Below are positions 1,661-55,543 of a stretch of 64,000 nucleotides of DNA, one piece after another. The DNA comes from Promethearchaeota archaeon (GTDB lineage Archaea > Asgardarchaeota > Lokiarchaeia > Sigyniarchaeales > SOKP01). The notes beneath the pieces were generated by a model. The model was not told where the DNA came from. It did not search any database and saw only the letters and a program-made list of their open reading frames with translations. Position 1 is the stretch's first letter. Each line of letters begins with the position of its first letter. The stretch spans positions 1,671 through 65,670 of the forward strand of contig JAHPZJ010000026.1 in the NCBI GenBank assembly GCA_019058245.1, written 5' to 3'. A program made the translations under genes and the position numbers.

Positions 1661-1896
1661 TAATAATTCATTAATTAAATACCTTGCTTCTGAATATTAT
1701 TTTTTTATTGCAAATATCATCAAAAGGTTTTATATTATCTTAGTAAAATTTTTTTGACTTTCTGAATCAAAAAGATATAGTAGAATATGAATGAATTCAT
1801 TGTCATTAAGGGTGCTAAAGAGAATAATTTAAAAGATATTGATGTAAAAATACCACGTAATAAGCTTATAGTTGTAACTGGCATTAATTGGAGCGG
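1661..1896 (+). repeat. Diverged direct repeat, copy 1 (uvrA upstream region plus first 37 codons)
   Basis: Aligns to ~4447-4681; identical 27-mer gatgtaaaaataccacgtaataagctt at 1841-1867 and 4626-4652. Confidence 0.92.
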
Positions 1897-1909
1897 TTAT
1901 TATAAATAG
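1787..1909 (+). pseudogene. uvrA: Truncated uvrA 5' fragment (40 aa)
   Basis: Manual translation [40 protein letters not shown]; 32 of the first 37 aa identical to UvrA at 4572; breaks within Walker A. Confidence 0.92.
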
Positions 1910-1952
1910 ATTAACAGTGTAATTTAAATAATAAAAAAACTATAATTGAATT

Positions 1953-4382
1953 ATGGTAGTTCAAGATATCAAAATGTCTCCTCTTCAAGGGATTCCATCA
2001 GAGAGGGTTAGAAAAATTAGAGATAATATGTTGTCCCAACCCTTCGAATATGATCTTGAACGAGCCCGATGTTATTCCAGGATTTGGAAACAGATGGAAG
2101 ATGCTCATCCCTACATGAAAAAAGCCAAAGCACTTGAAGAGTTCTTATGCTGTCTTCCTATAAGAATTGATAGTGATGAGCTTCTTGTAGGAGTAAAATC
2201 CAGCAAAATAAGAGCTGATCCTTTTGAAATAGAACTTGGAAGGCATGTTCGAAGTTATGATTTTCTCTTAGATGATTCAATAGATGAAGCAGCTAAAAAT
2301 TATTTCCGTAAACATAATCCTATCCTTAGACGTTATGTTCCTCTTACAGAACAAGAGCTTGACGAATTGAAAAATGATATTATCCCCGTCTGGAAAGGAA
2401 GGACATTAGCTGATCGAAAAGAAGAACTCTGGAAGGAAGCAGGCTTATTTAAGGAGAAAAAGAGTTCTATGGAACGAGCTATAAGTTGGATTAATCCATT
2501 TTATGCCAATATGCAAGGTCATACAATTCCAGGTTATAAACGAGTTCTTAGAATAGGATTTAAAGGAATAGAAAAGAAAGCTACTGAAGAACTTAAAAAA
2601 ATTAAAGAAACTGATAAGGATTACGAAAATCGCAAGACTTTTTATGAATCAATTCTGGTTACTTCTAAAGCTGTTTGTGATTACTCCAATCGATATGCAG
2701 ATCTCGCAATGGAATTGGCTGAAACCGCATCAGAAACAAGAAAGGCAGAACTTTTAGAAATTGCTGAACGTACAAGACAAGTACCTGCCCTCCCACCAAG
2801 AACATTCATGGAAGCACTTCAATCAATATGGATGACGAATGTTGTTATGGAAATGAGCTATGGTGATGGCAATATTTTTTCTCAAGGTCGAGTAGACCAA
2901 TATCTTTATCCTTATTATGTAGTTGATTTAGCTGAAGGACGCATTACTTACGAAGAGGCTTTAGAGTCAATTGAGGAATATTTAGTGAAACTTGCTTCAG
3001 TCGTTATAGCAGGACAGAACAATATTACGATTGGGGGATTAGATAAGGATGGAAATGACGCCACAAATGATATATCATATATGTTTCTTGAAGCTGTTGC
3101 AAATGTAAAAAGTTTATTGAATACAATATCGATACGGATTTCTTCCAACACACCCCGCGATTTTGTGAAAAGAACTATTGAAGCTTTTAGATATACCGGC
3201 GGAATGGGCATTCATAATGATGAAATCTTAGTACCACAGCTTCAAGAAGATGGTTATTCACTAGAACATGCCCGAGATTACTCACTCGTAGGGTGTGTAG
3301 AACCTCATGGTACAGGTTTTGATTTTTCATACACTGCAGGTAATGGTGTTCGATTGTCAGTCGTTTTACATATGGCTTTAAATGAAGGACGAATTCTTAT
3401 AGCAGGTAACCGTCAATTTGGAGCAAAAACGCCTGATCCAAAAACTTTTAAAACTTTCGAAGATGTGAAAAAAGCTTTTGTAGATCAGCTTTCCTTTGGA
3501 GTAGATTTAGTTGTGAAAAAGGCAGAGTTAAAAGATCAAGCCTTTGCAGAATTTTTTCCTTCCCCTTTGCTTTCATCTACAATAGAGGGATGTTTAGAGA
3601 GTGGAAAAGATGTAACTCGAAATGGAGCGCGCTATAATAACAATCCTATTGGTTGTCAAGCATTAGGAACCGTAACCAATTCATTAGCAGCAATTCGCTG
3701 GGCAGTATTCGAAGAAAAATTATTAACAATGGAAGAATTAGTTACGCATCTTAATAATAATTTCAAGGGAGCAGATAAACTTAAAGAACTTTTAAGAAAT
3801 AAGGCTCCAAAATACGGTAATGGTGATGAACGGACAGACGAACTTGCAATATGGGTTGCGAATACTTTATGTGATATTGTGAGAAAATATCCTGCTAGAG
3901 GTGGTGCTGGTATTTATCGCACATATTTTGTATCTTCAGGACTTAATATTCTTGAGGGTAAAATGTTAGGAGCGACTCCCGATGGAAGATTATCTGGTGA
4001 AGCTGTTTCTAATGGCATATCTCCTGCAAATGGAACAGAGAAAAATGGGCTTACTATGACGCTCCGATCAGTAGCTCTAGCAACAAAAGATGCTCTTCTA
4101 ACCGGTGGAGCATCAATGAACATAAGAATCAATCCTAGTTTATTAGAAACAGATGAGGGCTTAGATAAATTAACTTCTATTGTAGAAGCTTATTTAGAAT
4201 TAGGAGGAAGGGAACTTCAGATTAATCCTGTAAGTTCAGAAACATTAAGAGACGCACAAGCTCATCCCGAAAAATATTCTGACTTATCAGTTAAGGTAAC
4301 AGGTTATTCTGCACGTTTTATAGAAATTGGTAGGAGTCTTCAAAATGACATCATAACCCGTACGGTATTTAACGAATTATAA
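1953..4382 (+). CDS. Glycyl radical enzyme (PFL2/dehydratase-like family), substrate unknown
   Basis: Cys loop SLVGCVEP; GRVDQYLYPYY; APKYGN; GATPDGR; C-terminal Gly loop VKVTGYSARF. Confidence 0.93.
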   Translation: MVVQDIKMSPLQGIPSERVRKIRDNMLSQPFEYDLERARCYSRIWKQMEDAHPYMKKAKALEEFLCCLPIRIDSDELLVGVKSSKIRADPFEIELGRHVRSYDFLLDDSIDEAAKNYFRKHNPILRRYVPLTEQELDELKNDIIPVWKGRTLADRKEELWKEAGLFKEKKSSMERAISWINPFYANMQGHTIPGYKRVLRIGFKGIEKKATEELKKIKETDKDYENRKTFYESILVTSKAVCDYSNRYADLAMELAETASETRKAELLEIAERTRQVPALPPRTFMEALQSIWMTNVVMEMSYGDGNIFSQGRVDQYLYPYYVVDLAEGRITYEEALESIEEYLVKLASVVIAGQNNITIGGLDKDGNDATNDISYMFLEAVANVKSLLNTISIRISSNTPRDFVKRTIEAFRYTGGMGIHNDEILVPQLQEDGYSLEHARDYSLVGCVEPHGTGFDFSYTAGNGVRLSVVLHMALNEGRILIAGNRQFGAKTPDPKTFKTFEDVKKAFVDQLSFGVDLVVKKAELKDQAFAEFFPSPLLSSTIEGCLESGKDVTRNGARYNNNPIGCQALGTVTNSLAAIRWAVFEEKLLTMEELVTHLNNNFKGADKLKELLRNKAPKYGNGDERTDELAIWVANTLCDIVRKYPARGGAGIYRTYFVSSGLNILEGKMLGATPDGRLSGEAVSNGISPANGTEKNGLTMTLRSVALATKDALLTGGASMNIRINPSLLETDEGLDKLTSIVEAYLELGGRELQINPVSSETLRDAQAHPEKYSDLSVKVTGYSARFIEIGRSLQNDIITRTVFNEL

Positions 4383-4446
4383 AATTACTATTTATTATTT
4401 TTATTTTTTTATACAGACAATTTTTTCGCAGTTTTAGGATTAAGAT

Positions 4447-4681
4447 TAAAAATTCATAAATTACTTACTCCGATTCTGTATTTTTTTTTTAATTGTTTAT
4501 ATCAGTATAAGGTTTTATAATATCGTAGAAAAATTTTTTTGATTTCCGGAATTAAAAAGAAATAGCAGAATATGAATGATTTTATTGTCATTAAAGGTGC
4601 CAGAGAGAACAATTTAAAAGATATAGATGTAAAAATACCACGTAATAAGCTTGTGGTGGTAACTGGCATTAGTGGGAGCGG
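4447..4681 (+). repeat. Diverged direct repeat, copy 2 (upstream region and 5' end of intact uvrA)
   Basis: Matches 1661-1896 at an offset of about 2785. Confidence 0.92.
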
Positions 4682-7439
4682 AAAAAGTTCCCTCGCAATG
4701 AATACATTATATGCAGAAGGACAAAGAAGATTCTTAGAGTCATTATCAAGTTACGCTAGGCAATTCTTAGGAGAGATGGATAAACCCGATGTAGATTCAA
4801 TAGAAGGATTATCTCCAGCAATTGCAATTGAGCAAAAATCACTCTCGAAAAATCCACGAAGTACAGTTGGGACAGTTACTGAAATCTATGATTATTATAG
4901 ATTACTATATGCTAATATTGGTATCCCTCATTGTCCGAATTGTGGAAAAGAAATAAAACCCCAAACACCACAGCAAATTATTCAACAAATCTTAGGAACG
5001 ATAGAAGAAAATCAAAAATTTATTGTTAAATCTCCAGTTATTAGAGATAGAAAAGGAGAATACAAAGATCTTTTACAAGATTTAAAAAAGCAAGGATATG
5101 TTAGAGTAGAAATTGATGGGATACAATATACATTGGATGAAGATATCTCTATGGAAAAGAATGTTAAGCACAATATAAATGTTATTATTGACAGATTAGT
5201 AATGCGAAAAGATATCAGAACAAGACTAGCTGATTCTATTGAAACAGCATTAGAACTATCAGAAGGCTTAGTAATTGTTGAAATTGTGGGAAAAATGGAA
5301 CAAATTTATTCTGAACATCTTGCTTGTATTGATTGTGGAATTTCATTTCCTCCAATAGACCATAAAATGTTTTCTTTTAATATCCCTCACGGAAGTTGTA
5401 AATATTGTAGTGGTTTAGGTAATGTTATGGAATTTGACTATGGTTTATTATTAGGAAATGACTTAGATGTTCCACTACAAGAGACTCCGATTAGAGATAT
5501 TCCTGGTTTTGGATCTGAAAATGGATATTCTTGGCAAACTATAGTACAAGTTGCGAAACACTATGGATTCGATACTAAGCATACTCCAATTAAAGATATT
5601 GATTCAAAAAAACTCCATAAAGTTTTGTTTGGAACAGAAAATGAATCAATTGATTTTCATTTTGTAAGTGATAATACTGAATTTAAAAATAATAATGGAG
5701 AATTTAAATCTTCCTGGCAAGTTGTAAGACCATTTGAGGGAATAATTCCAATTCTTCACAGAAGATATATGGAAACCCGTTCAGAATGGGCTCGTGATGT
5801 CTATGAAAGTTTTATGAAGAGGATAGATTGTCCTCAATGCAAAGGTAAAAGGTTAAAACCTGAGAGTTTGGCTATAACGATCAAGAATCTTAATATTGCT
5901 GATTTATCTAACCTAGCTGTAAAGGAATCCTTAAAATTCTTCAATGAATTACAATTAAATGAAACTGAAAGGATAATAGTTAAAGAAGTATTAAAAGAAA
6001 TATTAGATAGACTATCTTTTCTTGAAAATGTGGGGTTAGACTACATAACTCTAAACCGTCGTTCAGATACACTATCTGTAGGGGAAGCTGAAAGGATAAG
6101 ATTGGCGACTCAATTAGGTTCTAGCTTAGTAGGGGTTCTATATGTATTAGATGAACCAAGTATAGGATTACATCAAAGAGATATCTCACGTCTCATTAAA
6201 ATGCTAAAAAAATTAAGAGATTTAGGAAATACAGTTATAGTGGTGGAACATGATGAGGCAATAATACGTAGTGCAGATCACATAATTGATTTAGGGCCAT
6301 TAGCGGGTGAAAGAGGGGGCGAAATAGTAGCTGAAGGCCCTATAGAAACCATAGTTAATTCAGATAGTTTAACGGGAGAATATTTGTCAGGGAAAAAGAG
6401 AATTGAAATTCCAGAGGTTAGACGTGAAATTAATCAAGACATTATTGAAATAAAAGGAGCCAAAGAAAATAATTTAAAAGGTATTAATGTAAAAATTCCT
6501 TTAGGAATATTTACTTGTATTACTGGAGTTTCTGGAGCGGGAAAAACAAGTCTTATTATTGATTGTCTATATAAAGGGCTTCATAATATAATAAACACTC
6601 GAAGTTCTAAACTAAATCAAGGAAAATTTGATAAAATAATAGGATATGAAAAAATAGATAAAATTATAAATATTGACCAATCTCCCATAGGAAGAACTCC
6701 AAGATCAGTACCTGCTACTTATACAAAAGCATTAGATTATATTAGAGAAATTTTTGCTGGTTTGCCAGAATCTAGAGAAAGAGGTTATAAGAAGGGAAGA
6801 TTTAGTTTCAATACAAAGGATGGACATTGTAAAAAGTGTAAGGGTACAGGCTATATTTTGAAAGAAATGTATTTCCTACCTGATGTGTATATCAAATGTG
6901 ATTTATGTAAAGGTAAAAGATATAATGCTGAAACATTAGACATAAAATATCGCGGAAAATCAATCTTTGATGTATTAAAGATGACTTTTCATCAAGCTTT
7001 AGAATTCTTTGAAAGTTTTCCGAATTTAAGGAGAACGATTAAAACTGTAGTAGACGTTGGATTAGGTTACTTAGAATTAGGTCAATCTTCGACAACACTT
7101 AGTGGTGGTGAATCACAAAGATTAAAAATTGCGAGAGAATTGAGAAAAATGAGTACTGGAAACACATTGTATATTTTAGATGAGCCAACAACTGGTCTCA
7201 GTTCTTTTGATATTAATTATTTATTAAAAGTACTTCAAAAGTTAGTTGATATAGGAAATACTGTAATCATTATTGAACATAATATGGATATTGTAAAGTC
7301 TGTTGATTATATTATTGATCTTGGTCCAGAAGGTGGTGAAAAAGGAGGCAATATTGTAGCTCAAGGCTATCCTGAGAATATAATTAAGAATAATAAGTCG
7401 TATACTGCTCAATATTTAAAACCATATCTGAAATCTTAA
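4572..7439 (+). CDS. uvrA: Excinuclease ABC subunit A
   Basis: Two ABC ATPase modules (GISGSGKSS, GVSGAGKTS, LSGGESQR, LDEP), CxxC zinc fingers, YAEGQRR. Confidence 0.98.
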   Translation: MNDFIVIKGARENNLKDIDVKIPRNKLVVVTGISGSGKSSLAMNTLYAEGQRRFLESLSSYARQFLGEMDKPDVDSIEGLSPAIAIEQKSLSKNPRSTVGTVTEIYDYYRLLYANIGIPHCPNCGKEIKPQTPQQIIQQILGTIEENQKFIVKSPVIRDRKGEYKDLLQDLKKQGYVRVEIDGIQYTLDEDISMEKNVKHNINVIIDRLVMRKDIRTRLADSIETALELSEGLVIVEIVGKMEQIYSEHLACIDCGISFPPIDHKMFSFNIPHGSCKYCSGLGNVMEFDYGLLLGNDLDVPLQETPIRDIPGFGSENGYSWQTIVQVAKHYGFDTKHTPIKDIDSKKLHKVLFGTENESIDFHFVSDNTEFKNNNGEFKSSWQVVRPFEGIIPILHRRYMETRSEWARDVYESFMKRIDCPQCKGKRLKPESLAITIKNLNIADLSNLAVKESLKFFNELQLNETERIIVKEVLKEILDRLSFLENVGLDYITLNRRSDTLSVGEAERIRLATQLGSSLVGVLYVLDEPSIGLHQRDISRLIKMLKKLRDLGNTVIVVEHDEAIIRSADHIIDLGPLAGERGGEIVAEGPIETIVNSDSLTGEYLSGKKRIEIPEVRREINQDIIEIKGAKENNLKGINVKIPLGIFTCITGVSGAGKTSLIIDCLYKGLHNIINTRSSKLNQGKFDKIIGYEKIDKIINIDQSPIGRTPRSVPATYTKALDYIREIFAGLPESRERGYKKGRFSFNTKDGHCKKCKGTGYILKEMYFLPDVYIKCDLCKGKRYNAETLDIKYRGKSIFDVLKMTFHQALEFFESFPNLRRTIKTVVDVGLGYLELGQSSTTLSGGESQRLKIARELRKMSTGNTLYILDEPTTGLSSFDINYLLKVLQKLVDIGNTVIIIEHNMDIVKSVDYIIDLGPEGGEKGGNIVAQGYPENIIKNNKSYTAQYLKPYLKS

Positions 7440-7568
7440 TGACTTAAGATTTTTCCTTAAAAATCTTTTTAAGGCTTAAAGCAAAATTCTAAACCTATGG
7501 TAAATTAATTTATACTGTAAGTATTGTTAAATTATTATAAATATATTGTTTGAGATTCGTGGCAGAAA

Positions 7569-9374
7569 ATGACAGAAGCTAATAATAAGATAATTAGAGC
7601 TCCGATTGTTTGTATTCTTGGTCATATTGATCATGGAAAAACTACTATACTAGATTATATCAGAGGTACTATGGTTCAACAAAGAGAAGCAGCAGGAATT
7701 ACACAACATATTGGCGCTTCATATTTTCCAACAGAAGATATAAAAGAATTTTTAAGAAAATCAAAACAAGAATTTGCTGAAAAAGAAATTAATCTTCCAG
7801 GAATATTAGTTGTAGATACACCAGGGCATGCCGCCTTTCTAAATCTACGAAGAAGAGGAGGTGCTGTTGCAGATATTGCAATTTTAGTTATAGATGTTAC
7901 TGCTGGAACAATGCCAATAACATGGGAATCAGTACGGATTTTAAGAGAGAGAAAAACACCTTTTGTTATTGCTGCTAATAAAATAGATAGAATATCTGGA
8001 TGGAAGTCAAAAAAGGATGCTGATTTTCTCGATACCTATAACTCTCAAAAACCACATGTAAAAGACTTTTTGGATGAGAAAATTTTAGGTATTATAGGTA
8101 ATTTCTTAGAGGAGGGATTTAAGGGAATAGATCGCTATGATAAAATAAAAGATTTTACTAAGAAAATAGCGATTGTACCTACAAGTGGAAAAACTGGAGA
8201 AGGTATTTCGACGCTTTTAATGATTTTAATGGGGTTAGTACAACAATATCTAACTGCAAATCTCCAATTTTCTGAAGGATCAGCTAAAGGAGTTGTATTA
8301 GAAGTTAAAAAAGAGAAAGGTCAAGGAAAAACAATGGATGTTCTTATTTATGATGGTATTATTAATAAAGGAGATGAATTTATTGTTGGGGGATTAGAAA
8401 AACCCATTAAATCTAAAGTAAGAGCTTTATTAACTCCAAAACCTTTAGATGAAATTCGAGATCCAAGACAAAAATTTGATTCTGTTGACTTTATTAGTGC
8501 AGCAGCTGGTATTAAAATCCTTTCCCCAAATATCGATGATGTTGTAGCAGGCTCTCCATTTAGAGGTATAAAAGATTCTTCCGAAGAGGAAACTATATAT
8601 AAAGAAATAGAGTCTGAAGTGGAAAGTATTAGGATAAAAACTGATAAAGCAGGAGTGGTTTTAAAAGCTGATACTTTGGGTTCACTTGAAGCATTGGAAA
8701 ATCATTTTACAAAAAATGGAGTGAAGATAAGCATTGCTGATGTAGGACCAATTAAAAAAGAAGACATCATTAATGCAAATATAGTCAAAGAATTAGATCC
8801 ATATTCTGCAACAGTTTTGGGATTTAATGTTCCAATATTACCTGAAGCTAATGAACAAGCCATTAAAGATAATATACGGATCTTCACGAATAATGTTATA
8901 TATCGCCTATTAGAAGAATATATAGAATATGCAGAAATAAGAAAAGCTGAAGACACTGCAAAAGGTTTAAGTGAACTCATCTTGCCTGCTAAAATTAAAA
9001 TGCTTCCTGAATTTATATTTAGAAATTCAGATCCCGCTGTTTTTGGTGTTTATGTAGAAGCTGGGACTTTATACCCAAAAGTCCAGTTAATTACTGATAA
9101 AGGTAAAAGAGCTAGGAGAATTCATCAAATTCAAGATAAAGGACAAACACTCGAAAAAGCTCCGAAGGATTCAGAGGTTGCGATTTCTATTCGAGGTATT
9201 GAAATTGGGCGAGATCTTGAAAAGGATGAAACATTATTTGTTAACATCCCAGAATCTCATGTTAGACAATTAATGGGAAAATTTATTGATGAATTAACCA
9301 CAGATCAAAAACAAGCTTTAAGAGAATTCATCCTTTTAATGCGTAAGGTCAATCATCCATGGTGGGGGATGTAA
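7569..9374 (+). CDS. infB: Translation initiation factor aIF5B (IF-2)
   Basis: IRAPIVCILGHIDHGKTT, GITQHIGA, DTPGH, NKID, KADTLGSLEAL. Confidence 0.97.
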   Translation: MTEANNKIIRAPIVCILGHIDHGKTTILDYIRGTMVQQREAAGITQHIGASYFPTEDIKEFLRKSKQEFAEKEINLPGILVVDTPGHAAFLNLRRRGGAVADIAILVIDVTAGTMPITWESVRILRERKTPFVIAANKIDRISGWKSKKDADFLDTYNSQKPHVKDFLDEKILGIIGNFLEEGFKGIDRYDKIKDFTKKIAIVPTSGKTGEGISTLLMILMGLVQQYLTANLQFSEGSAKGVVLEVKKEKGQGKTMDVLIYDGIINKGDEFIVGGLEKPIKSKVRALLTPKPLDEIRDPRQKFDSVDFISAAAGIKILSPNIDDVVAGSPFRGIKDSSEEETIYKEIESEVESIRIKTDKAGVVLKADTLGSLEALENHFTKNGVKISIADVGPIKKEDIINANIVKELDPYSATVLGFNVPILPEANEQAIKDNIRIFTNNVIYRLLEEYIEYAEIRKAEDTAKGLSELILPAKIKMLPEFIFRNSDPAVFGVYVEAGTLYPKVQLITDKGKRARRIHQIQDKGQTLEKAPKDSEVAISIRGIEIGRDLEKDETLFVNIPESHVRQLMGKFIDELTTDQKQALREFILLMRKVNHPWWGM

Positions 9375-9382
9375 TTAACTAA

Positions 9383-10840
9383 ATGTCCTCAATTAATGAC
9401 ATATTTGATGAAATTCTCAATGAAATAACCCCTACCCAAAAAGAAATTGCTAAAATAGAAAATGTTATAGGAAAATTACGTAAATTATTGGATAAGGAAG
9501 CAAAAGAATTACAAATATATTATACAAAAATAGAACCTCAAGGCTCAACCGGTATCAAGCAAACTCAATTAAAAAATGATTTTGATATTGATCTTTTTAT
9601 AGGTTTAGATTATACTCAATTTAAACCTAAATATCAAGGTTTAAGTAAAAGTAAACTAAAAAAGTATTCTAAAAAAGATTTTTTAGCATTATGTAATAAT
9701 TGGATACTACCAAGTTTAACTTTAAATGAATTTAATAATCCTCGCTTATTATATGCAGAGCATCCATATGTTACAGTAGATTACACCCTAAAAGATATAA
9801 AAATAAAGATTGATATCGTTTTGTATTTTGACTTAGATTTAGAATATATTAAGAATAATGGACCTATTACAGCAGTTGATAGATCTCCTTGGCATGGTTG
9901 TTTTATAAGAGATGAATTAACTTCTGAACAAAAAAATGATGTTAGACTTTTAAAGCAATTCTTTAAATCTTGCTATAGTTATGGTGATAAAAGTGCTATA
10001 GGAAAAGTAGGATTTATTGGTTATAGTGCGGAGTTATTAATCTATTATTTTAATAATCTTATTAATCTATTCAAGAATTTCCATAAGTTAGATAAAATCG
10101 CACTTGATTTCTATAAGAGAAATGAAGAAGAATTAAATAAAATTATCCATTTTCAAAAAGATTATCTAATTATCATCGATCCAATTGACAAAAATCGAAA
10201 TGTTGCTTCTGCAATCTCTGAAAGAGCATATAAATATTGTAATAAAAGAGTAAGTGAATTCCTGAGAAATCCAAGTCCAAAATTCTTTAGAATTAGACCA
10301 ATCCCAGAAGTAGATTTATCAAAAAAAGATGATTCTCTCTTATCAAAAATATTTATTATAGAATTTCAAAATACTACTTTTGAAATCCATTATACCATTA
10401 ATAGAGATAAGTTATATTCTCTGGGAGAAAAAATTAAAGCTAATGGAGAAAAAGAATTTTCTCATGTTGAACGTTTTGGAAAAATCATATTTGAAGTCTA
10501 TTTCGAAGAAGAGAAGAATGAGTATAACTTAGCTATTTTTTGTAATAACCCTAAAATTTCTGAATCCTATATTCGAAAAGGACCCCCAATTACAGAAGAA
10601 AGGCATGTTAATAATTTTAAAAGAAAGAATCCGAATTATTTTGAAAAGGATGGTTATTTATGGGTAAAAACTATAAGAGATTTCAATGAATTCTTAGTTT
10701 TTTTAAAAGATTCTGTTAAAAATAAAATTCCTGAGAATTTTAGAACTGTAAATCTGTCACCCGCATATTATGCTATAAAATCTTCTGGAAAAAAAGCAAT
10801 ATATCTCTTGAAAAATATAATTCTTCCTTTATATTTATGA
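9383..10840 (+). CDS. cca: Archaeal class I CCA-adding enzyme
   Basis: GS...DFDIDLF nucleotidyltransferase motif, YAEHPYV, TAVDRSPWH, GFIGYSAELL, DPIDKNRNVASA. Confidence 0.92.
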   Translation: MSSINDIFDEILNEITPTQKEIAKIENVIGKLRKLLDKEAKELQIYYTKIEPQGSTGIKQTQLKNDFDIDLFIGLDYTQFKPKYQGLSKSKLKKYSKKDFLALCNNWILPSLTLNEFNNPRLLYAEHPYVTVDYTLKDIKIKIDIVLYFDLDLEYIKNNGPITAVDRSPWHGCFIRDELTSEQKNDVRLLKQFFKSCYSYGDKSAIGKVGFIGYSAELLIYYFNNLINLFKNFHKLDKIALDFYKRNEEELNKIIHFQKDYLIIIDPIDKNRNVASAISERAYKYCNKRVSEFLRNPSPKFFRIRPIPEVDLSKKDDSLLSKIFIIEFQNTTFEIHYTINRDKLYSLGEKIKANGEKEFSHVERFGKIIFEVYFEEEKNEYNLAIFCNNPKISESYIRKGPPITEERHVNNFKRKNPNYFEKDGYLWVKTIRDFNEFLVFLKDSVKNKIPENFRTVNLSPAYYAIKSSGKKAIYLLKNIILPLYL

Positions 10841-10856
10841 TTTTATAAAAATAAAT

Positions 10857-11789
10857 TTAGCTCAAATTCTTTTTATTCAGATTTAGTCTAAGTATCTGAA
10901 AAGCCATCATTAAAGCGATTCCAATTAGTGTAAATAACATAAAATATTTTCCAAAGGAAATTGTATTATCTTTGAAACCACTCATGATATCATAACTTAA
11001 AGAAACATAATCTTCATAAATTCTTACATTATTCCATTCCCATAAATAACTTTTTCCACCATTGATATTTGAAATTGTACAATTTTTGCCATTAATAATT
11101 ACATCATTTCCGGGTTTTTCTACACTATAAACCCTATCTGGTTGATAACCTTTAACTCTAAATTCAACCATTTCTGTTATATTTCCGTTCCATGTCCGAG
11201 ATGTACCCACGTAATACTCAAAATCGATCTCATAATAATTTGAACTTAATATTGGTGGAGTTACTAGATATGTATTAAAACTGTATTCCAAAACTAAAGA
11301 ATCATTCTTCGGAAGGGTAACATTGCATATTAGATAAATTGATCCCCCAAACATGATCTTATATGGAATAGCACTATTATTGACCATGATTTTTCCATTA
11401 AAATTCAATTCAGAAATTTCTATTGGTATCCAATCAGGATATTTATAATTATGAAGAATTTCATAATAGGTTGTATCATTTATTCCTAACATGCCTGGTG
11501 AAAATGGGGCAAGTATAGTTACATTCTTGCTATTATAAGGATTAAATATCGTATAATTACCATTAAAATAGATATCAAAATGACTACTAGGATGAGTCGC
11601 ATCAACTTCAACTAAAACGTTTGCATTGGGCATAGAATAAGTACCATTTTCTGGCGTTATCAGTCCACTAGAAGATGTTATATAAGGAGATAATGGATCT
11701 GCGAGGGAATCTTTTGTATATACTTCATTACAGGATATTAAAATAAAGGAAATAATTAATAGAAAAATCCTTATTTTGGATGATCTCAT
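10857..11789 (-). CDS. Secreted/surface protein with C-terminal membrane anchor (DUF4424-like)
   Basis: N-terminal signal peptide; FEYYVGTSRTWNGNI motif; Asn/Thr-rich; C-terminal ISFG + TM + basic tail. Confidence 0.6.
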   Translation of the reverse strand: MRSSKIRIFLLIISFILISCNEVYTKDSLADPLSPYITSSSGLITPENGTYSMPNANVLVEVDATHPSSHFDIYFNGNYTIFNPYNSKNVTILAPFSPGMLGINDTTYYEILHNYKYPDWIPIEISELNFNGKIMVNNSAIPYKIMFGGSIYLICNVTLPKNDSLVLEYSFNTYLVTPPILSSNYYEIDFEYYVGTSRTWNGNITEMVEFRVKGYQPDRVYSVEKPGNDVIINGKNCTISNINGGKSYLWEWNNVRIYEDYVSLSYDIMSGFKDNTISFGKYFMLFTLIGIALMMAFQILRLNLNKKNLS

Positions 11790-11920
11790 TTTATCAGAAG
11801 TAGTATTATATTCTTTTTATTTAAATCTTCCTGCTATCAATATTGACTTAAAGAATCTTTCTATTTCATTCTTCAATTCTTTTAAAAATCAATAAAATTC
11901 TACTTTTTTATCTCTAAAAT

Positions 11921-13228
11921 TTAATGAGATTCAGGAAATAAAATTATAATATTAGTGCCTTTTGTATGATCACCTGAAACCTTATCTTCAATCCATATTT
12001 TACCAGAAAAACTTTTTATTACTTCATTTACAAGTAATAATCCTAATCCAATTCTCTTGAAATCTTTTGGCTTCTCATAAATTGGTTGAAAGAGATTCTT
12101 TTTCATAGAATCTGGTATTCCTACACCATTATCTATGAACTCTATTTTAATATTAGAATTACTATCTTTTTTCTCTTTAGAAACTTTAATTATAATTTCT
12201 TTTATAGAATTATTATTATATCTAACTGAATTATTTATTATTATTCGAAATGCATTTAATAATAAATTATTAGCATTGACAAAAATTTCCTCTCTTTTAC
12301 CAACCAATTCAATCTTAATTTGATTTTCATTGAATTTTTCTTTAATTTCATTGATAACATGATCCAAAATATCATACAGTTTTATTGATATGATTCGGAC
12401 TTTTCCCCTCTCTAAATCAGAGAGAATTTTTACGTTTTGACCTAATTCTGCTCCTCGTTTTACTTGACTAACAGCAATATTCATCAACTCATCTAAATCT
12501 CCCTTTATATCATAACTTTCTAAATTATGAGAAATTATTTCTAAAGAAAATTGCAAATTTTGTAATATGTTGTTGATATCGTGGACAAATAGATCCTTGT
12601 AAAATTCCGCTCTATTATAGGATATTCGATATTTACTTTCTGATCTAAGAATTAAATCTTCAATAATAGCAATAACTCCAGTTATAAGCATCATTGTAGC
12701 CATCATCACTCTTGAGAATTCTAGAAAATCATTCCCCCCAGGAAATCCTAGATCTCTTAAAATGCTTGCAATCAATTGCAAAAACCCTGTTATTAAAATG
12801 AAACTCATAAATGCATGTAAGGGTGTTCTTTTTTTAAAATATATTTTTACGCTAAGGAACAATGCTATAAATAAGAAAAGAGCAATTAATAATTGAAGTA
12901 CTAAACTAGTAAATACTTGAATATTTACGAACAATATCAGACTAATTGCAATTTTTTTTGATTTTTTTGAAAATGTCTGGTAATATTCTTTAGCAATAGC
13001 AATTATGAATATTAGAACAGTTAAAGCTGAAAATGTGATAGAAATTAATTCTAAAGAATCATAACGTACTTGAGACAATAATCTAAAAACTTCTGATACA
13101 GAAGCTGCAATATAAGCTAAAAGCCATGAGAATAATTCCTTCCTTCTAAAACATACACTAGCAAGAGTAAAAGTAGCTAAAATTATGACAATTGTTGTTA
13201 ATAAATGGATAATAAAATAGTCGCTCAA
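11921..13228 (-). CDS. Membrane-bound sensor histidine kinase
   Basis: Multiple N-terminal TMs; H-box LFVHDINNILQ; N-box INNSVRYN; DNGVGIP; GLGLLLV; TTG start. Confidence 0.92.
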   Translation of the reverse strand: MSDYFIIHLLTTIVIILATFTLASVCFRRKELFSWLLAYIAASVSEVFRLLSQVRYDSLELISITFSALTVLIFIIAIAKEYYQTFSKKSKKIAISLILFVNIQVFTSLVLQLLIALFLFIALFLSVKIYFKKRTPLHAFMSFILITGFLQLIASILRDLGFPGGNDFLEFSRVMMATMMLITGVIAIIEDLILRSESKYRISYNRAEFYKDLFVHDINNILQNLQFSLEIISHNLESYDIKGDLDELMNIAVSQVKRGAELGQNVKILSDLERGKVRIISIKLYDILDHVINEIKEKFNENQIKIELVGKREEIFVNANNLLLNAFRIIINNSVRYNNNSIKEIIIKVSKEKKDSNSNIKIEFIDNGVGIPDSMKKNLFQPIYEKPKDFKRIGLGLLLVNEVIKSFSGKIWIEDKVSGDHTKGTNIIILFPESH

Positions 13229-13568
13229 TTAAAAAACCAATTAAGTACTCATATTTAGTTTTTAATATCTTAATGGAGTTAAATATTATAAATTTGTACC
13301 TATCATAAAATATTATTCATAGAAATTTATCGTGGAACTTTATAAAAATTTCTATAAATCCTCAAATTCCTTTTTATTAATCACCTGAGTTATTATTTTC
13401 AATATCACGGTAAAAAATAGTAAAAGACCATCGGTTTATCATTTCTTATTAAATTAAGTCAATTTTAGATTCATTTTTTCTACTTCTATAAGTTTTAACA
13501 ATTAGTAATTATTTTAATGGTATACCCGTTAATTGCTAAAAATAAAAGTTGAAGAGTCCAAGAAATGT

Positions 13569-13592
13569 CTAAGAGTCTATACATACTCTTAG
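13569..13592. promoter_or_regulatory. Inverted repeat upstream of the RadA paralog (candidate operator)
   Basis: ctaagagt-N8-actcttag, about 45 bp before the ATG and just upstream of a TATA-like tttat. Confidence 0.35.
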
Positions 13593-13637
13593 TTCTAAAA
13601 CTATTTATGGAGATCTACATATTAATATACATTAATT

Positions 13638-14321
13638 ATGATATCATTACACACGGGATATGAAGAATTAGATTGTCTCTTAGATGGAGGAATTCATCCA
13701 GGAAGAATTACAGAGATTTTTGATCCTAGCTATACGGGAAAGACTCAAATTATACATCAAATAATTGTGAATTCTTATCTTCCAAAAGAGAAAGGGGGCT
13801 TAGATGGAGCGATTCTTCATATTGATACTAATGGAGATTTTTCTCCTGAAAGAATTATTCAGTTATGTGAATCTAAAGGAATTGATCATAAACCCATCTT
13901 AAATAAAATTCTATTATTTAGACTAATTAATGAAGCTCGTTTATTAGATCTTTTTGATATTATAGGAGATATAGTTCAAAACCAGCACGTTAAATTGATT
14001 ATCATTGACTCTTTAACTTGGCCTTTAATTAAAATGATAAATGAAAAAATAATTAATGAATCCAGTCTTGTAAAACTATATAATACTCTTATTTACCTTA
14101 TAGAACGATTCCCTTCTCTTTCAATTGTCTATACCAGTACTTATATGCCAAAAAACCTTCTACCTAATTATCTGACTCATGCTAATTTTACTCGCATAAA
14201 AGTACAATATATTAAAGGTCAACATAAAATTGTAGAAATGAGACATCCTAAAGTAAACTTTAAACAAATCGATTTTTATATCACTAAAGATGAACTTTCT
14301 AATCATGGAATCGATAATTAA
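13638..14321 (+). CDS. RadA/Rad51-family paralog lacking the N-terminal domain, with degenerate ATPase motifs
   Basis: TGYEELDCLLDGGI, ITEIFDPSYTGKTQ, LPKEKGGLDG, IDTNGDFSPERI, LIIIDSL. Confidence 0.88.
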   Translation: MISLHTGYEELDCLLDGGIHPGRITEIFDPSYTGKTQIIHQIIVNSYLPKEKGGLDGAILHIDTNGDFSPERIIQLCESKGIDHKPILNKILLFRLINEARLLDLFDIIGDIVQNQHVKLIIIDSLTWPLIKMINEKIINESSLVKLYNTLIYLIERFPSLSIVYTSTYMPKNLLPNYLTHANFTRIKVQYIKGQHKIVEMRHPKVNFKQIDFYITKDELSNHGIDN

Positions 14322-14564
14322 GAGAATTAAATCGATTTAAAAATGAAATAGATTTTAACTAACTAAAACCAAAATTTTAGAGATAATTAAAAGGATAGTA
14401 TCTTATCATTAATTCGATTTTTATAAATAAAAAAGTCTAATAAGAGTATTATTTTAACGTTATAGATTATTTTTCAATAACTCATAAAATTTTTATGATT
14501 TCCCGTATTCCTTTCTTTAATTATATTATGATGATATTTAAAATTTATACTAAGTGAAACATTT

Positions 14565-16817: not shown

Positions 16818-16863
16818 TTTTTATATTTCTTTTTTTAATTCTAATTGAAAATATAGATTTAGT

Positions 16864-17436
16864 CTAAGAAAAATCTGAAATTTTAGCAATTTGATATAAT
16901 TTTTTAACAAGTACTTCAAAAGCATCAGTTACTCCTTGGCCTGTCAATGCACTTGTTTTATAATATCCTAAAAATCTATTCTCTTTTGCAAAATGAACTA
17001 CATTTGCATCTGCAGTTGGCAAACTAGAATCTGATGCTAATGTTCCATCATCAACTAAATCCACTTTATTTCCAAATAAAACCATTGGTATATTTCCACA
17101 ATGTTTTTTAAGATCATCAAGCCATCGGGGAACGTGATCATAAGATTGTGGCTGTCCTGAATCGAGAGAAAAAACGATTATTGCCCCAGCACTTCCAATA
17201 TAAAAACGTTGCCGCAACGCTTGAAACTGATCTTGCCCAGCAATATCCCAAAGAAACAATTCAACTTTCTCTCCATTAATTTCCTCTTCATATTTCGAGA
17301 ATTGCGTCCCTAAAGTTGCTATGTATTCCTTCTGAAAAGATCCTTGAGTATATTTTTTAATTAAGGATGTTTTCCCTACAGCACCATCTCCTATAATCAC
17401 TACTTTAAACCCGTATCCTTGACCTTCTCCACTCAT
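16864..17436 (-). CDS. Ras-superfamily small GTPase (Rab-like)
   Basis: GDGAVGKT, WDIAGQ, GNKVD, TSAL. Confidence 0.95.
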   Translation of the reverse strand: MSGEGQGYGFKVVIIGDGAVGKTSLIKKYTQGSFQKEYIATLGTQFSKYEEEINGEKVELFLWDIAGQDQFQALRQRFYIGSAGAIIVFSLDSGQPQSYDHVPRWLDDLKKHCGNIPMVLFGNKVDLVDDGTLASDSSLPTADANVVHFAKENRFLGYYKTSALTGQGVTDAFEVLVKKLYQIAKISDFS

Positions 17437-38720: not shown

Positions 38721-38769
38721 AAATAAACAAGATGAATAATTTAGGAAAAGAAATAAAAATTTAGATATG

Positions 38770-47613: not shown

Positions 47614-47669
47614 AGAAATTAAAAAACTTAAAAATAAATAGTAATTTTAAGACGGTTCACTACAAATTA

Positions 47670-48053: not shown

Positions 48054-48121
48054 TAAATTATATATTTCAGTTTCTGTAAATATAGATAATTAAATAAAAC
48101 TATTTATTTATAGTAATATAT

Positions 48122-49537: not shown

Positions 49538-49538
49538 T

Positions 49539-51688: not shown

Positions 51689-51710
51689 CAAAACCTATAA
51701 CAAAAATAAA

Positions 51711-52556: not shown

Positions 52557-52564
52557 AGGGCAAA

Positions 52565-53713: not shown

Positions 53714-53778
53714 GATTAATTCAATATAGAATTTTCTTAATTAAATAAATAATTAATAATCTAATAATTATTTTAGCT

Positions 53779-54837
53779 TTGATAATGACTCCTCAAAATA
53801 ATAATTTCGTTAATGTATTATTAAAAGAATCACACTCACCCATTCCAATATATTGCACTGGATACCCTGAGATAGAATTTATCGATAAATATATCAAATG
53901 TTATAAAATAGAAACTAACGATAAGGAGCATTTGTTAAATTTTAAAAATTATGATATCATTAAAAAAATGGGCTTTGATGCTATTTCTCTCTGGGATTTT
54001 CGACGGGGAGAAGGTGGGTATTTATTAGATGATCAGAGAAAAGTAGATGGATGGGGACGAATTTATAAAAGAGATTGGTATTCATGGGATGGCGTTTTTA
54101 AAGATGAGAAAACTTTAGAAGATTGGCAGTATTTAAAAATTCCCTCTAAAGAAAAATTAAAAAATTTAAAAGACTTTTTAGCTAAGGAAAAACAGGATTT
54201 AGCATACGTTATCTCATTACCCGGTCTTTTTGAAAAAACTTGGCAATCAATGGGGTTTTATTATTTCGCTAAATGCCTAAAGAAAAATATTAAATTTGTG
54301 GAAAGTGTAGTTTCATTTTTCTCGGATTATCTGCAGAAATTAATTAGAGCACTTCAAAGTACTGGAGTTGAAAATTTTTTAATAGCTGACGACTATGGTT
54401 ATAAAAATAGAACTTTTATTTCTAAAGAAAGATGGCTTCATCTATTTTTTGAAAAATATAATAACATTGTTAACATTATTCAAAAAGAAAAACAGAATTT
54501 AATATTACATTCTGATGGGTATATCTCTGAAATGATTAGAATATTTATAGATTTAGGATTTAATGGCGTTCAAAGCCTAGAACCTAATTCGGGAGTAGAT
54601 ATTTTTTCTCTTTTTAAAAAATTTAAAGATCAGATCTGCTTTATTGGTAATTTAGATATCTCTCTATTATCTTTTGGAACTCCAGAACAGGTAAGAAATT
54701 ATATTATTAAATTAATTAAAAAATCAAAAAAATATAATTGTTTTTTAGCAATTTCTCCAACACAACAAATTAATTCAAAATGTAAGTCTGATAATATAAA
54801 GACAATGATAGAAACAACTAAAAATTTTTATTCATAA
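53779..54837 (+). CDS. Uroporphyrinogen decarboxylase/MtaA-CmuA family protein
   Basis: DGWGR, ADDYG, LHSDG, LEP, FIGNLDI. Confidence 0.85.
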   Translation: MIMTPQNNNFVNVLLKESHSPIPIYCTGYPEIEFIDKYIKCYKIETNDKEHLLNFKNYDIIKKMGFDAISLWDFRRGEGGYLLDDQRKVDGWGRIYKRDWYSWDGVFKDEKTLEDWQYLKIPSKEKLKNLKDFLAKEKQDLAYVISLPGLFEKTWQSMGFYYFAKCLKKNIKFVESVVSFFSDYLQKLIRALQSTGVENFLIADDYGYKNRTFISKERWLHLFFEKYNNIVNIIQKEKQNLILHSDGYISEMIRIFIDLGFNGVQSLEPNSGVDIFSLFKKFKDQICFIGNLDISLLSFGTPEQVRNYIIKLIKKSKKYNCFLAISPTQQINSKCKSDNIKTMIETTKNFYS

Positions 54838-54934
54838 TTTAAAAAGGAACTAATATAGTTATATATATTAACAATCTTATATTTTTTTAAGTTGTATTTA
54901 ATTCAGAAATTCAATTATAGAAAGGATTATTATC

Positions 54935-55351
54935 ATGATTATATCTAAAAACGAGATAAATATCCTCGCTATTGTTAACATAATTTTAGTATTTGTATAT
55001 TGGATAATTGATATTTTACATATAATTTTTAGTTCTTTGGATTTTTTTATTCCTATTCCACCATTTTATTTTATATTCATGTTTGCTTCTTCATTGTTAG
55101 TATTTCTTAAACATGTAGAAGCTGCGGTGACATTACAAATAGTGGGAAGTATTATACATATATTCGGAACTTTAGGTTTAGTAGGCGTTTATTCGGCGTT
55201 TTCGAACCAAACTTTTTTGGAATATATATTGAATAATCCATTAAGTATATATTCAATTTTTTTAATTTTTGGATTTTGGATTATTGTTGTTGGATTTATA
55301 ATATTCTTAAGAAATCAAAATCCTCCTTTAGATCAATATACATCAATTTGA
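54935..55351 (+). CDS. Small 4-TM hypothetical membrane protein (inserted cargo)
   Basis: Four hydrophobic segments; lies between duplicated URO-D 3' ends. Confidence 0.7.
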   Translation: MIISKNEINILAIVNIILVFVYWIIDILHIIFSSLDFFIPIPPFYFIFMFASSLLVFLKHVEAAVTLQIVGSIIHIFGTLGLVGVYSAFSNQTFLEYILNNPLSIYSIFLIFGFWIIVVGFIIFLRNQNPPLDQYTSI

Positions 55352-55357
55352 AAAAAT

Positions 55358-55543
55358 AATCTTAATATCTCTTTTCTAGCATTTGAAATCCCATATCAAG
55401 TAAAGCAATCTATTATCAAATTGATAAAAAAGTCAAAAAAGTATAATTGCTTTTTAGCTATTTCTCCAACACAACAAATTAATCAACACTGTATACTCCA
55501 AAATATTAATGCCATGATAGAAACCACTAAAATATTTAAATAA
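55358..55543 (+). pseudogene. Orphan 3' fragment of the URO-D-family gene (direct repeat of 54649-54837)
   Basis: Manual translation NLNISFLAFEIPYQVKQSIIKLIKKSKKYNCFLAISPTQQINQHCILQNINAMIETTKIFK*; 43/61 aa identical to the C-terminus of 53779-54837; identical 24-mer at 54751-54774 and 55460-55483. Confidence 0.92.

Follow-up and report, generated by a model that had tools for sequence, protein, structure and literature searches.

Gene organization of the uvrA and URO-D-family loci

The window, a stretch of 64,000 nucleotides, comes from the genome (G000) of an uncultured Promethearchaeota archaeon. Self-comparison of its sequence revealed two pairs of direct repeats, both located where they were first described. 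The pair at uvrA (D1) spans 1697-1896 and 4482-4681, with 86% ungapped identity and a spacing of 2785 nt, and was extended by gapped BLAST to 1661-1896 and 4447-4681 (83-85% identical). The pair at a URO-D-family gene (D2) spans 54648-54839 and 55357-55548, with 76% identity and a spacing of 709 nt. D1 covers about 125 nt 5′ of uvrA, including a TATA-like sequence (AAGGTTTTATA, 1724-1734), and the first 37 codons of the gene, and D2 consists of the last 63 codons and the stop codon of the URO-D-family gene. Perfect cores of 27 bp (1841-1867 and 4626-4652) and 24 bp (54751-54774 and 55460-55483) were found in D1 and D2, respectively. The original prediction that the two loci share one architecture was thus reproduced in its repeat pairs, spacings, and cores. 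The features of the two loci are as follows.

1..906, + strand, 3′ part of uvrB, the left neighbor (Pfam UvrB/Helicase_C/UVR; adjacency in relatives)
907..1660, + strand, non-native spacer between uvrB and fragment A, holding a 75-aa ORF at 1203-1430
1661..1896, + strand, fragment A, the uvrA upstream region and codons 1-37 (repeat comparison)
1841..1867, + strand, copy of the 27-bp core in fragment A, identical to 4626-4652
1900..4410, + strand, cargo 1 segment, comprising the CDS at 1953-4382, about 50 nt upstream, and 28 nt downstream
4447..4681, + strand, copy B, comprising the promoter and the initial ~110 nt of intact uvrA (similarity to G005)
4572..7439, + strand, intact uvrA, 955 aa (Pfam; 60-nt window identities)
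53779..54837, + strand, intact URO-D-family gene, 352 aa (Pfam; comparison with G077)
54741..55449, + strand, 709-bp insert (marker string, switch point, and empty site in relatives)
54935..55351, + strand, cargo 2, encoding a 138-aa hydrophobic protein (no Pfam family)
55357..55548, + strand, fragment F of the URO-D 3′ end (comparison with G077)
55766..56143, + strand, Roadblock/LC7 gene, the native right neighbor of URO-D in relatives (Pfam; synteny)

Reciprocal mosaic at the URO-D-family locus

The 709-bp insert was specific to the studied genome; in its two closest relatives, G077 and G081, and in G063 and 13 other members of the genus, the URO-D-family gene is directly followed by the Roadblock gene. 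When compared with the G077 sequence, the intact copy and the fragment matched at 99 and 75 of 105 positions to the left of the core, and at 41 and 53 of 60 positions to its right, respectively. The functional right part of the gene differed from G077 at 14 of 49 sites, whereas the left part differed at 6 of 105. A single breakpoint explained 43 of the 46 sites informative against G077 (0 of 20,000 permutations, p < 5e-5), and the intact and fragment copies switched ancestry within one common 9-nt interval. The exchange point lies in the middle of the repeat, at 54740/54741 and 55449/55450, about 10-18 nt to the left of the core. Judged from these sites, the intact gene is native up to 54740 and foreign from 54741 to the stop codon, and fragment F is foreign at 55357-55449 and native at 55450-55548, running on into the native downstream region. 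Such a swap of ancestry at one common point is the expected signature of a single reciprocal crossover.

The insert begins with the foreign right part of the gene end (with the core at 54751-54774 and the stop codon); this is followed by a spacer of 97 nt and then the cargo ORF, and the foreign left part comes last, the two gene-end parts being circularly permuted. The cargo 2 product is probably a multi-pass membrane protein (candidate assignment), and a search of 135 genomes of the family gave only one relative, 33% identical and located in an unrelated context, and one marginal match. The spacer and the cargo were absent from all 61 related URO-D loci, and so was any sequence closely matching the foreign gene end. 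A 2.3-kb metagenome contig with 93.5% identity to nt 55011-55350 was considered as a donor candidate for cargo 2 and was rejected as probably chimeric, because this matching stretch adjoins an internal piece of a GC-rich purL-like gene.

Chimeric structure of the uvrA locus

In 11 relatives (G063, G070, and nine others), uvrB and uvrA adjoin with a gap of about 50-60 nt, which represents the empty site. The synteny check that had been proposed thus yielded empty sites in close relatives at both loci. Cargo 1 encodes an 809-aa PFL-like glycyl radical enzyme (Pfam). The gene shares 90% identity with GRE1 in the G002 island and 86% with its counterparts in G004 and G088; for the nearer relatives G063 and G070, the comparison reported no match to the segment.

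Identities in 60-nt windows showed that nt 1-120 of uvrA were 95-98% identical to G005 and 63-72% identical to G001/G063. In the gene body, nt 121-660 were about 87% identical to G005, a distant species, and, in comparison with nearer relatives, nt 121-360 were about 90% identical to G001. By these identities, the intact uvrA is a predicted chimera of a foreign promoter and first ~115 nt with a native body. Fragment A, about 86% identical to G005 and hence at the same level as the gene body, is probably the displaced native 5′ end of uvrA. Copy B is foreign up to about nt 115, and fragment A ends close by, at nt 110, with about 16 nt of filler at the junction of fragment A and the cargo (1897-1899 onward). 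The right junction of the insertion was identical in G000, G081, and G077, and this common junction therefore points to a single event, which is older than the split of these three sister genomes.

The ORF in fragment A (1787-1909) ends at a stop after 40 codons and carries a Gly-to-Trp change in Walker A. The 27-bp core was nearly invariant in close copies (G081, G077, and G005) and more diverged in farther U-type relatives. When the fragment A copies were compared across genomes, they were 92% identical from the promoter to the core and 70-76% identical in the coding tail; the copies decay independently in three genomes, and A-type sequence was restricted to the clade of the studied genome. 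From this pattern, fragment A is seen as decaying in its coding tail and conserved in its promoter part, and the promoter may drive the glycyl radical enzyme cargo. The original prediction of an intact host gene beside a dead fragment was correct for both host genes, but the uvrA fragment keeps a conserved promoter. Likewise, many of the repeat differences had been described as third-position synonymous changes; this was only partly right, as it agreed with about 7 of 13 coding differences in D1 (manual reading of alignments) and with 10 of 22 changed codons to the left of the URO-D core, mostly near the core, which were purely synonymous (manual count), but the changes private to fragment A were mostly non-synonymous (manual reading of alignments). 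Synonymous differences therefore do not serve as proof of xenology at uvrA, where the changes of the fragment itself look like decay.

Genome-wide occurrence and other loci

Gene-end fragments near their parent genes were counted genome-wide in non-coding DNA within 10 kb. Fifteen were in direct and one in inverted orientation, and interior control windows of genes gave one direct match in the same census, in line with the recurrence in this lineage that had been expected from the two loci. Across loci, the repeats are 70-340 bp long with graded similarity, the inserts (0.7-5 kb) hold one gene each, and the exchange positions vary between the far left, the middle, and the far right of the repeat. 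At C28 208466, C22 55529, and C28 11275, synteny was rearranged or not clear-cut in the five relatives searched, and these were left unclassified.

At the lpdA-like locus (C6), the two copies of G081 compared with the single copy of G077 fit one breakpoint at 41 of 41 sites, and the copies of G000 fit one breakpoint at 25 of 25 sites (p < 5e-5 for both). The fragment matched G077 at 86 of 114 positions in its cargo-proximal part and at 51 of 51 in its distal part, and was nearer to other species (88-91%) than the intact copy was (74-78%). A 65-nt core at this locus is a later gene-conversion tract and is absent from the sister genome G081. The same site holds larger islands of 11-21 kb in G082 and G012. 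At the helicase locus (C3), the site was empty in four relatives, and the fragment and the intact copy were 79% and 92.5% identical to G077, respectively; the copy assigned as foreign is located 5′ of the cargo and ends in a truncated gene. The uvrA and helicase loci have no internal breakpoint, and the exchange lies at the repeat edge. At URO-D, helicase, and yyaL, the two copies are 20-24% different, although the nearest sister genomes, at 87-93% identity, have empty sites.

The shared-base test of foreign ancestry is confounded if one reference defines "native"; with sites limited to those at which G077 and the other copy agree, bases found in other lineages were carried at 25 of 28 and 10 of 13 sites in the non-native parts of lpdA (P ≤ 5e-4) and at 36 of 64 fragment-specific sites of the helicase locus (P = 1e-4), and the foreign parts at URO-D were not significantly nearer to any sampled lineage (P = 0.18 and 0.14). 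Taken by locus, the foreign copy would be part of each copy at URO-D and lpdA, the fragment at the helicase locus, and probably the end of the intact gene at uvrA. A donor with a continuous foreign gene end beside the cargo was found neither in 61 related genomes nor in the metagenome scan.

The genome-wide search for recombinases covered tyrosine recombinases only, in six genomes. G000 contained one, of 311 aa, which is probably XerA. XerA-like matches to PF00589 numbered one each in G000, G082, G012, G002, and G081, with a second, weaker match in G081, and none in G003. No tyrosine recombinase was found within the islands checked, and the cargo proteins had no match to a recombinase or transposase family or domain in Pfam, as expected from the earlier statement that no integrase or transposase was visible.

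Proposed mechanism

The sequence comparisons largely support the view that accessory genes repeatedly entered the chromosome of this archaeon at the tips of housekeeping genes with no integrase. They also largely support the prediction that the cargo came with a xenologous copy of the gene end, through the empty sites, the reciprocal mosaic at URO-D, and the foreign 5′ module of uvrA. We consider it likely that both loci arose when incoming DNA carrying an accessory gene and a foreign gene terminus underwent homologous (homeologous) recombination with the chromosome. The incoming DNA would consist of one accessory gene joined to the terminus of another lineage's copy of the neighboring housekeeping gene, either as a small Campbell-type circle or as linear DNA whose ends point inward, and a single reciprocal exchange would insert the whole molecule. 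Recombination at 70-85% identity requires short identical patches, and the exchange would be placed in whichever patch close to the gene end is conserved best. The result would be a duplicated gene end, one copy completing an intact chimeric gene and the other being a truncated leftover. Only tips would be used because only pieces with a gene start or stop leave an intact copy after insertion, which is the logic of insertion-duplication mutagenesis. The form of the incoming DNA, a dependence on RadA, and the way in which the DNA passed from cell to cell are inferred.

At uvrA, the exchange would have taken place at the far right, near the Walker-A codons, and the intact gene would therefore have the incoming promoter and about 115 nt, with the fragment as the old native end. 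The promoter of the fragment now lies 5′ of the glycyl radical enzyme gene and has stayed conserved. After insertion, the repeats would keep recombining, resulting in gene conversion and possibly precise loss.

Alternative explanations

One-sided homology-facilitated illegitimate recombination of a linear donor, in which the gene-end side pairs and the cargo side is joined illegitimately in or beside the resident end, would leave that end as a fragment and require neither a circle nor a permuted substrate. Such events are documented in bacteria (PMC3240628; also cited in PMC5361080). At uvrA, the donor order of glycyl radical enzyme gene, promoter, and uvrA would be natural, the foreign tract end adjoins the fragment end, and filler is present at the junction; at uvrA and the helicase locus, this explanation fits equally well, as neither has an internal breakpoint. 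However, it predicts a wholly native fragment, and the cargo-proximal parts at URO-D and lpdA are non-native (75/105 and 86/114 to G077), while the distal parts are native (53/60 and 51/51) and both copies switch at one point. At the helicase locus, the foreign copy before the cargo and the truncated gene would require an unnatural donor order. This explanation is judged unlikely.

In-situ tandem duplication of the gene end with neutral decay of the spare copy, the cargo being ancestral or separately inserted, is very unlikely. The mostly non-synonymous coding changes of fragment A, with destruction of the Walker-A glycine, the independent decay of its copies in three genomes, and the clade-confined A-type sequence are as expected from duplication and decay. 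This reading conflicts with the empty sites in sisters that are 87-93% identical at loci whose copies differ by 20-24% (URO-D, helicase, and yyaL), with the concentration of differences from G077 in the functional right part of URO-D (14/49, against 6/105 on the left), with the greater similarity of the lpdA fragment than of the intact copy to other species, with the reciprocal mosaics at URO-D and lpdA, and with the different ancestries of the copy B 5′ module and the gene body at uvrA. On these comparisons, duplication and decay is refuted at URO-D, lpdA, and the helicase locus. For uvrA only, in-situ duplication followed by later allele replacement of copy B is a possible explanation.

The inserts could also be remnants or satellites of site-specific integrative elements with att sites in gene ends, whose integrase acts in trans or has been lost. 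A rebuilt gene end with a displaced fragment is what integrase islands produce in tRNA and protein genes, and islands of 11-21 kb occupy the lpdA site in G082 and G012. Nevertheless, the exchange points differ by locus and lie anywhere in the repeat, no sequence common to the cores or switch points was seen by eye, the repeats show graded similarity over 70-340 bp in place of a short identical core, tyrosine recombinases were few (XerA-like, in five of six genomes) and absent from the islands checked, and the inserts are as small as 709 bp. No fixed short identical exchange core was found, since the URO-D switch lies outside the 24-bp core and the 65-bp core of lpdA is absent from G081. For the same reasons, the switch lying to the left of the core at URO-D and the lpdA core being a later conversion tract, the perfect cores were rejected as att-like sites. 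Scans of the window for tRNAs and RNA families found nothing, and therefore no tRNA target is involved. An origin from such elements is highly improbable.

Public runs were compared as short assembled contigs, in which joints with 21-24-nt sides were disregarded and uncovered parts gave no information. Among these assembled contigs, neither a circular junction nor an empty allele turned up. Contigs from other samples bridged the intact end to the cargo, and also the cargo through the fragment to the downstream region, with 0 mismatches, and a unitig of run X7 covered 55226-55655, on the fragment F side of URO-D, in one piece. The uvrA architecture was also present in the independent assemblies G081 and G077 and is therefore not an assembly artefact. 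Although the genome is a MAG of 76% completeness with 31 scaffolds and N gaps, an assembly or binning artefact joining strain or species chimeras at conserved stretches is scarcely credible, because independent assemblies, among them G081 with contigs as long as 1.05 Mb, show the same architectures at uvrA, lpdA, and CDF, the junctions are crossed without mismatch by unitigs of other samples, and repeats only 76-86% alike do not collapse during assembly.

Comparison with known systems

In Campbell-type (ends-in) integration, one reciprocal exchange inserts a whole molecule and duplicates the surrounding homology. If the homology piece contains a gene terminus, one intact gene and one truncated copy are produced, and the repeats can recombine again, popping the insert out. 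This type of integration is familiar chiefly from laboratory use or from plasmids that have IS copies in common. The studied inserts resemble it in their direct repeats of the homology segment (15 direct versus 1 inverted), in the reciprocal chimeras with a common switch point at URO-D (43/46) and lpdA (41/41 and 25/25), and in the unoccupied single-copy sites in relatives of the studied genome. They differ in appearing as a natural and recurrent route, in the 70-85% identity of the homology, in the single-gene inserts of 0.7-5 kb, and in occurring between species of an Asgard genus.

In naturally transformable bacteria, homology-facilitated illegitimate recombination (HFIR) uses one homologous anchor to admit otherwise non-homologous DNA with no mobility enzyme (PMC3240628; de Vries and Wackernagel 2002, as cited in PMC5361080). 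The single anchor and the dispensable mobility enzyme are shared with the studied loci, but in HFIR the far end is joined illegitimately and recipient DNA is usually deleted, and it predicts neither the reciprocal mosaic nor the permuted foreign gene end, both of which were seen at URO-D and lpdA. At Rhs, CDI, and T6SS effector-immunity loci, an incoming module recombines in the conserved part and displaces the old toxin tip as a downstream orphan (PMC5361080). There too, a new end is supplied, the old end is pushed downstream, and no integrase is found. However, these are polymorphic-toxin loci at which the new end itself is the selected cargo, whereas the studied loci have housekeeping targets (uvrA, lpdA-like, helicase, and URO-D family), involve either gene end, and carry unrelated neighboring cargo.

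Integrase islands and proviruses in gene ends likewise rebuild the gene end and leave a displaced partial copy at the far border, but at the studied loci neither an integrase nor a fixed core was found, the position of the exchange is variable, and the repeats are long and of graded similarity. Aloposons, described in Heimdallarchaeum, were ruled out, as they integrate at tRNA sites and carry giant genes (PMC8813620). A homing-nuclease model was ruled out for the two loci in the window, the cargos being a metabolic enzyme and a small hydrophobic protein.

Implications for gene gain in Asgard archaea

No known prokaryotes are more closely related to eukaryotes than the Asgard archaea, whose gene gain is debated and has been discussed mostly via viruses, plasmids, and integrases. 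The mechanism itself is textbook insertion-duplication; its recurrence as a natural route of gene gain in Asgard archaea appears to be undescribed. Such a gene-by-gene route would need just host recombination and a short conserved patch near a gene terminus. It would make core genes chimeric, as proposed for uvrA, the URO-D-family gene, and the lpdA-like gene, and could give the incoming gene a housekeeping promoter. The leftover fragments would be diagnostic and countable in any genome, providing a computable marker of integrase-independent gene flow, and tractable archaea offer a way to test the route as a concrete hypothesis.

More tentatively, and with some doubt, the gene-end repeats might also act as a vehicle, with host recombination popping the bracketed gene out as a small circle that enters related genomes sharing the same tip. 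If so, single genes would be mobile across species with no element-encoded enzyme. This would be one of the main ways in which a lineage whose searched genomes carry little besides an XerA-like tyrosine recombinase gains genes and has the promoters and ends of its housekeeping genes replaced.

Spacer between uvrB and fragment A

The spacer at 907-1660 was present in G077, and G081 had about 1.9 kb extra there. Its 75-aa ORF (1203-1430) occurred at other loci in relatives. A 93-nt stretch (1455-1547) with a weak fold was single-copy in the studied genome and had several matches in G018.

Layout of the two loci

The genome holding the window (G000, contig C26, 1671-65670) is a MAG of 3.09 Mb with 29% GC and 76% completeness. 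Both loci are flanked by direct repeats made of a gene end, and the repeat pairs were as originally described, with identities of 86% and 76%, spacings of 2785 and 709 bp, and perfect cores of 27 and 24 bp at the uvrA and URO-D loci, respectively.

Features of the two loci (window positions)
up to 906: uvrB, left neighbour of the uvrA locus
754-nt spacer between uvrB and fragment A
1661-1896: fragment A, repeat copy
1953-4382: glycyl radical enzyme gene (GRE), cargo
4447-4681: copy B, repeat copy overlapping the start of uvrA
4572-7439: uvrA, intact
53779-54837: URO-D-family gene
97-nt spacer between URO-D and cargo 2
54935-55351: hydrophobic protein gene (138 aa), cargo 2
55357-55548: fragment F, repeat copy
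right of fragment F: Roadblock/LC7 gene

Fragment A and copy B each span about 125 nt upstream of uvrA, including a TATA-like box (1724-1734 in fragment A), followed by uvrA codons 1-37, and the reading frame of fragment A stops after 40 codons. In the uvrB-uvrA spacer, a 75-aa ORF (1203-1430) had nucleotide matches of 71-77% at unrelated loci of five relatives (G004, G018, G013, G002, and G088) and may be a small gene moving on its own. Elsewhere in the window, two minus-strand neighbours that are tandem paralogues (190 and 184 aa) have a 65-nt stretch in common with 78% identity (17050-17114 and 17793-17857).

Reciprocal mosaic at the URO-D locus

Both G000 copies of the URO-D gene end were compared with the single copy of G077, one of the two closest sisters, as a reference. 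Left of the core, the intact copy matched G077 at 99/105 positions and the fragment at 75/105, and right of the core the values were 41/60 and 53/60, respectively; fragment F continues into near-identical native downstream DNA. Read from left to right, 26 consecutive differing sites pointed to the intact copy as the native one, and nearly all later sites to the fragment. A single breakpoint fitted 43 of the 46 sites, and none of 20,000 shuffles was as good. Both copies switch within one common 9-nt interval, which ends at 54740 in the intact copy and at 55449 in the fragment and lies about 10-18 nt to the left of the 24-bp core; the foreign DNA is therefore 54741-55449. It opens with the right part of a foreign gene end, stop codon included; the spacer and the cargo follow, and the left part of the foreign gene end comes last.

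This circular permutation with one common switch point is the outcome predicted for a single reciprocal crossover with either a circle or an ends-in linear fragment. Coincidence at one switch point is not to be expected from two independent crossovers. In-situ duplication cannot explain the numbers, because the functional right end of the URO-D gene differs from G077 at 14/49 positions and the left part at 6/105. In an alignment read by eye, the 12-nt SKCK-coding block of the right gene end was identical to that of G010 and near the G063 type. The foreign left part differs from the native sequence mostly by synonymous changes near the exchange point and is heavily changed further out, which suggests that earlier hosts already carried it as a dead fragment.

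Chimeric uvrA and a probably retained promoter

The intact uvrA is itself chimeric. Its nt 1-120 are 95-98% identical to G005, 63-72% to G001, and 67-68% to G063, and from nt 121 onward the identities are about 87%, about 90%, and 80-88%, respectively. G001 and G063 are closer kin to G000 than G005 is, and they have a different uvrA N-terminus and no conserved upstream element. The ancestry break falls at the repeat end. Fragment A and G005 share about 86% identity, which equals the level of the gene body, and no intact A-type uvrA allele was found among genus members. In the simplest scenario, an incoming molecule carrying GRE together with a G005-like promoter and 5′ module recombined near the Walker-A codons; this would hand the gene a foreign 5′ end and push the native one aside. 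Alternatively, the uvrA end may have been duplicated in place and copy B replaced later, which requires an extra event and a border matching the repeat end by chance. The copy B of G081, the other closest sister, contains an internal A-type patch, and thus the repeats also undergo gene conversion.

The fragment A copies of G000, G081, and G077 have decayed independently in their coding tails (70-76% pairwise identity, with the ATG gone in G077), whereas the part from the TATA box to the core is 85-92% alike, similar to coding DNA. This difference indicates that fragment A is dead as uvrA and probably serves as the promoter of GRE. The cargo GRE and GRE1 of G002 share 90% identity, and the flanks are only 81-83% identical to that genome; searches of G063 and G070 reported no match to the cargo. 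Outside the window, three tandem GRE paralogues (G000:C13:402560-410264) are 75-78% identical to the window's GRE.

Empty sites, assembly support, and donor search

Synteny in relatives revealed empty sites, in which a single copy occurs without cargo, at both loci. The uvrB-uvrA gap is about 50-60 nt in 11 members of the same genus (G001, G003, G006, G007, G011, G012, G014, G016, G017, G063, and G070). Different inserts occupy it elsewhere, namely a 434-aa gene in G005 and a GRE1-GRE2 island in G002, G004, G013, and G088. A candidate activase gene (300 aa) adjoins GRE2 in the G002 and G004 islands, and no activase gene lies beside the window's GRE. The uvrA insert represents one older event, since it is common to G000, G081, and G077 with an identical right junction. 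The Roadblock gene directly follows URO-D in 16 relatives, including G077 and G081, whose flanks are 86-92% identical to those of G000, and the 709-bp insert is therefore specific to G000.

The architectures were not assembly artefacts: unitigs of two further samples in a single study cover 54780-54944 and 55226-55655 with zero mismatches, and the older architectures repeat in assemblies made independently, among them G081, which has a 1.05-Mb contig. These empty sites, together with the URO-D and lpdA mosaics and the chimeric uvrA, support, with corrections, the original prediction that the cargo arrived with a foreign copy of the target gene end.

A donor genome for the captured cargo was not found among 61 related URO-D loci or in a metagenome scan, nor was a circle or an empty allele found in short assembled contigs of public runs. 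We infer the form of the incoming DNA and its passage between cells. The last 340 nt of cargo 2 have 93.5% identity to metagenome contig Ga0209536_100239312 (L095, 110-449), where homology stops exactly at the cargo 2 stop codon and the stretch abuts an internal piece of a purL-like gene with 45% GC; either the contig is chimeric or the same cassette boundary occurs here in a different context.

Genome-wide recurrence

From both ends of every G000 gene of at least 600 nt (3,690 ends), windows of 200 terminal nt and 100 nt of flank were compared with non-coding DNA up to 10 kb away, and matches covering at least 40 coding nt were counted. Gene-end windows gave 15 direct matches (nine at 3′ ends and six at 5′ ends) vs one inverted match, and interior control windows gave one direct and two inverted matches, the latter at one locus. 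The pattern recurs. The cargo is diverse and includes GRE, small hydrophobic, HXXEE, and beta-lactamase-like proteins, an ABC/FtsX pair, a P-type ATPase, and large proteins that match no Pfam family.

At the lpdA-like locus (contig C6), the intact genes of G018, G093, G070, and G085 share 88-91% identity with the fragment and 74-78% with the end of the intact copy. The architecture is common to G081, whose intact copy and fragment match the single copy of G077 at 114/114 and 38/51, and at 86/114 and 51/51 positions, respectively, a perfect reciprocal swap. The non-native parts have bases that occur in other lineages. The 65-bp perfect core in G000 is a later conversion tract, because it is missing in G081. 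The single G077 copy (L076, G077:C278:1-300), on a contig that stops 22 nt past the stop codon, equals the intact-left plus fragment-right parts of G081 (114/114 and 51/51) and represents either a never-occupied site or precise loss via recombination between the repeats. The lpdA-like 3′ end occurs three times within about 2.5 kb in G003 (L072, G003:C7:85200-95200), and islands of 11 kb in G082 and 21 kb in G012 lie between the intact gene and the fragment. The lpdA-like site is a multi-species hotspot.

The helicase locus (contig C3) is empty in four relatives; its intact copy is native and its fragment is foreign along the whole length, with 36 of 64 private bases found in other lineages (P = 1e-4). 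Empty sites also occur in relatives at the yyaL-like and CDF loci. In G081, the aIF5B 5′ end (window 7581-7799, a 219-nt duplication) flanks a 5.7-kb insert (L083, G081:C7:915500-932900, locus coordinates 9816-15537) that holds an inverted third uvrA promoter module together with a copy of the uvrA 3′ end (window 7243-7511); the arrangement resembles nested captures. Two pairs of direct repeats, 100-120 nt long and 98-99% identical, at G000:C5:27511-27629 and 28422-28540 (0.9 kb apart) and at G000:C6:136492-136593 and 139038-139139 (2.5 kb apart) may be very recent captures.

Known systems and recombinases

Campbell-type insertion-duplication, or ends-in recombination, gives the same outcome as the capture loci. 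Homology-facilitated illegitimate recombination (PMC3240628) and gene-tip displacement at Rhs, CDI, and T6SS loci (PMC5361080) are among the nearest natural parallels, and described Asgard mobile elements such as aloposons (PMC8813620) differ in kind. The literature searched gave no account of recurrent single-gene capture at housekeeping-gene termini without an integrase in Asgard archaea. Capture at gene ends is a mechanism already known, here in a natural setting that is new and in which it recurs.

The searches agreed with the predicted lack of an integrase: no recombinase was found among the cargo genes of the capture loci, and no tyrosine recombinase in the islands at uvrA, lpdA, and aIF5B. 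Genome-wide, G000 has one match to PF00589 (tyrosine recombinase), a 311-aa frame (144 bits) that is most likely XerA. One match each was present in G082, G012, and G002, a second, weaker one in G081, and none in G003. Depending on the locus, the exchange point lies at the left edge, in the middle, or at the right edge of the repeat, and no motif common to the exchange points was seen by eye. Such variability is in line with homologous recombination seeded in whichever patch is best conserved locally, and not with a site-specific enzyme.
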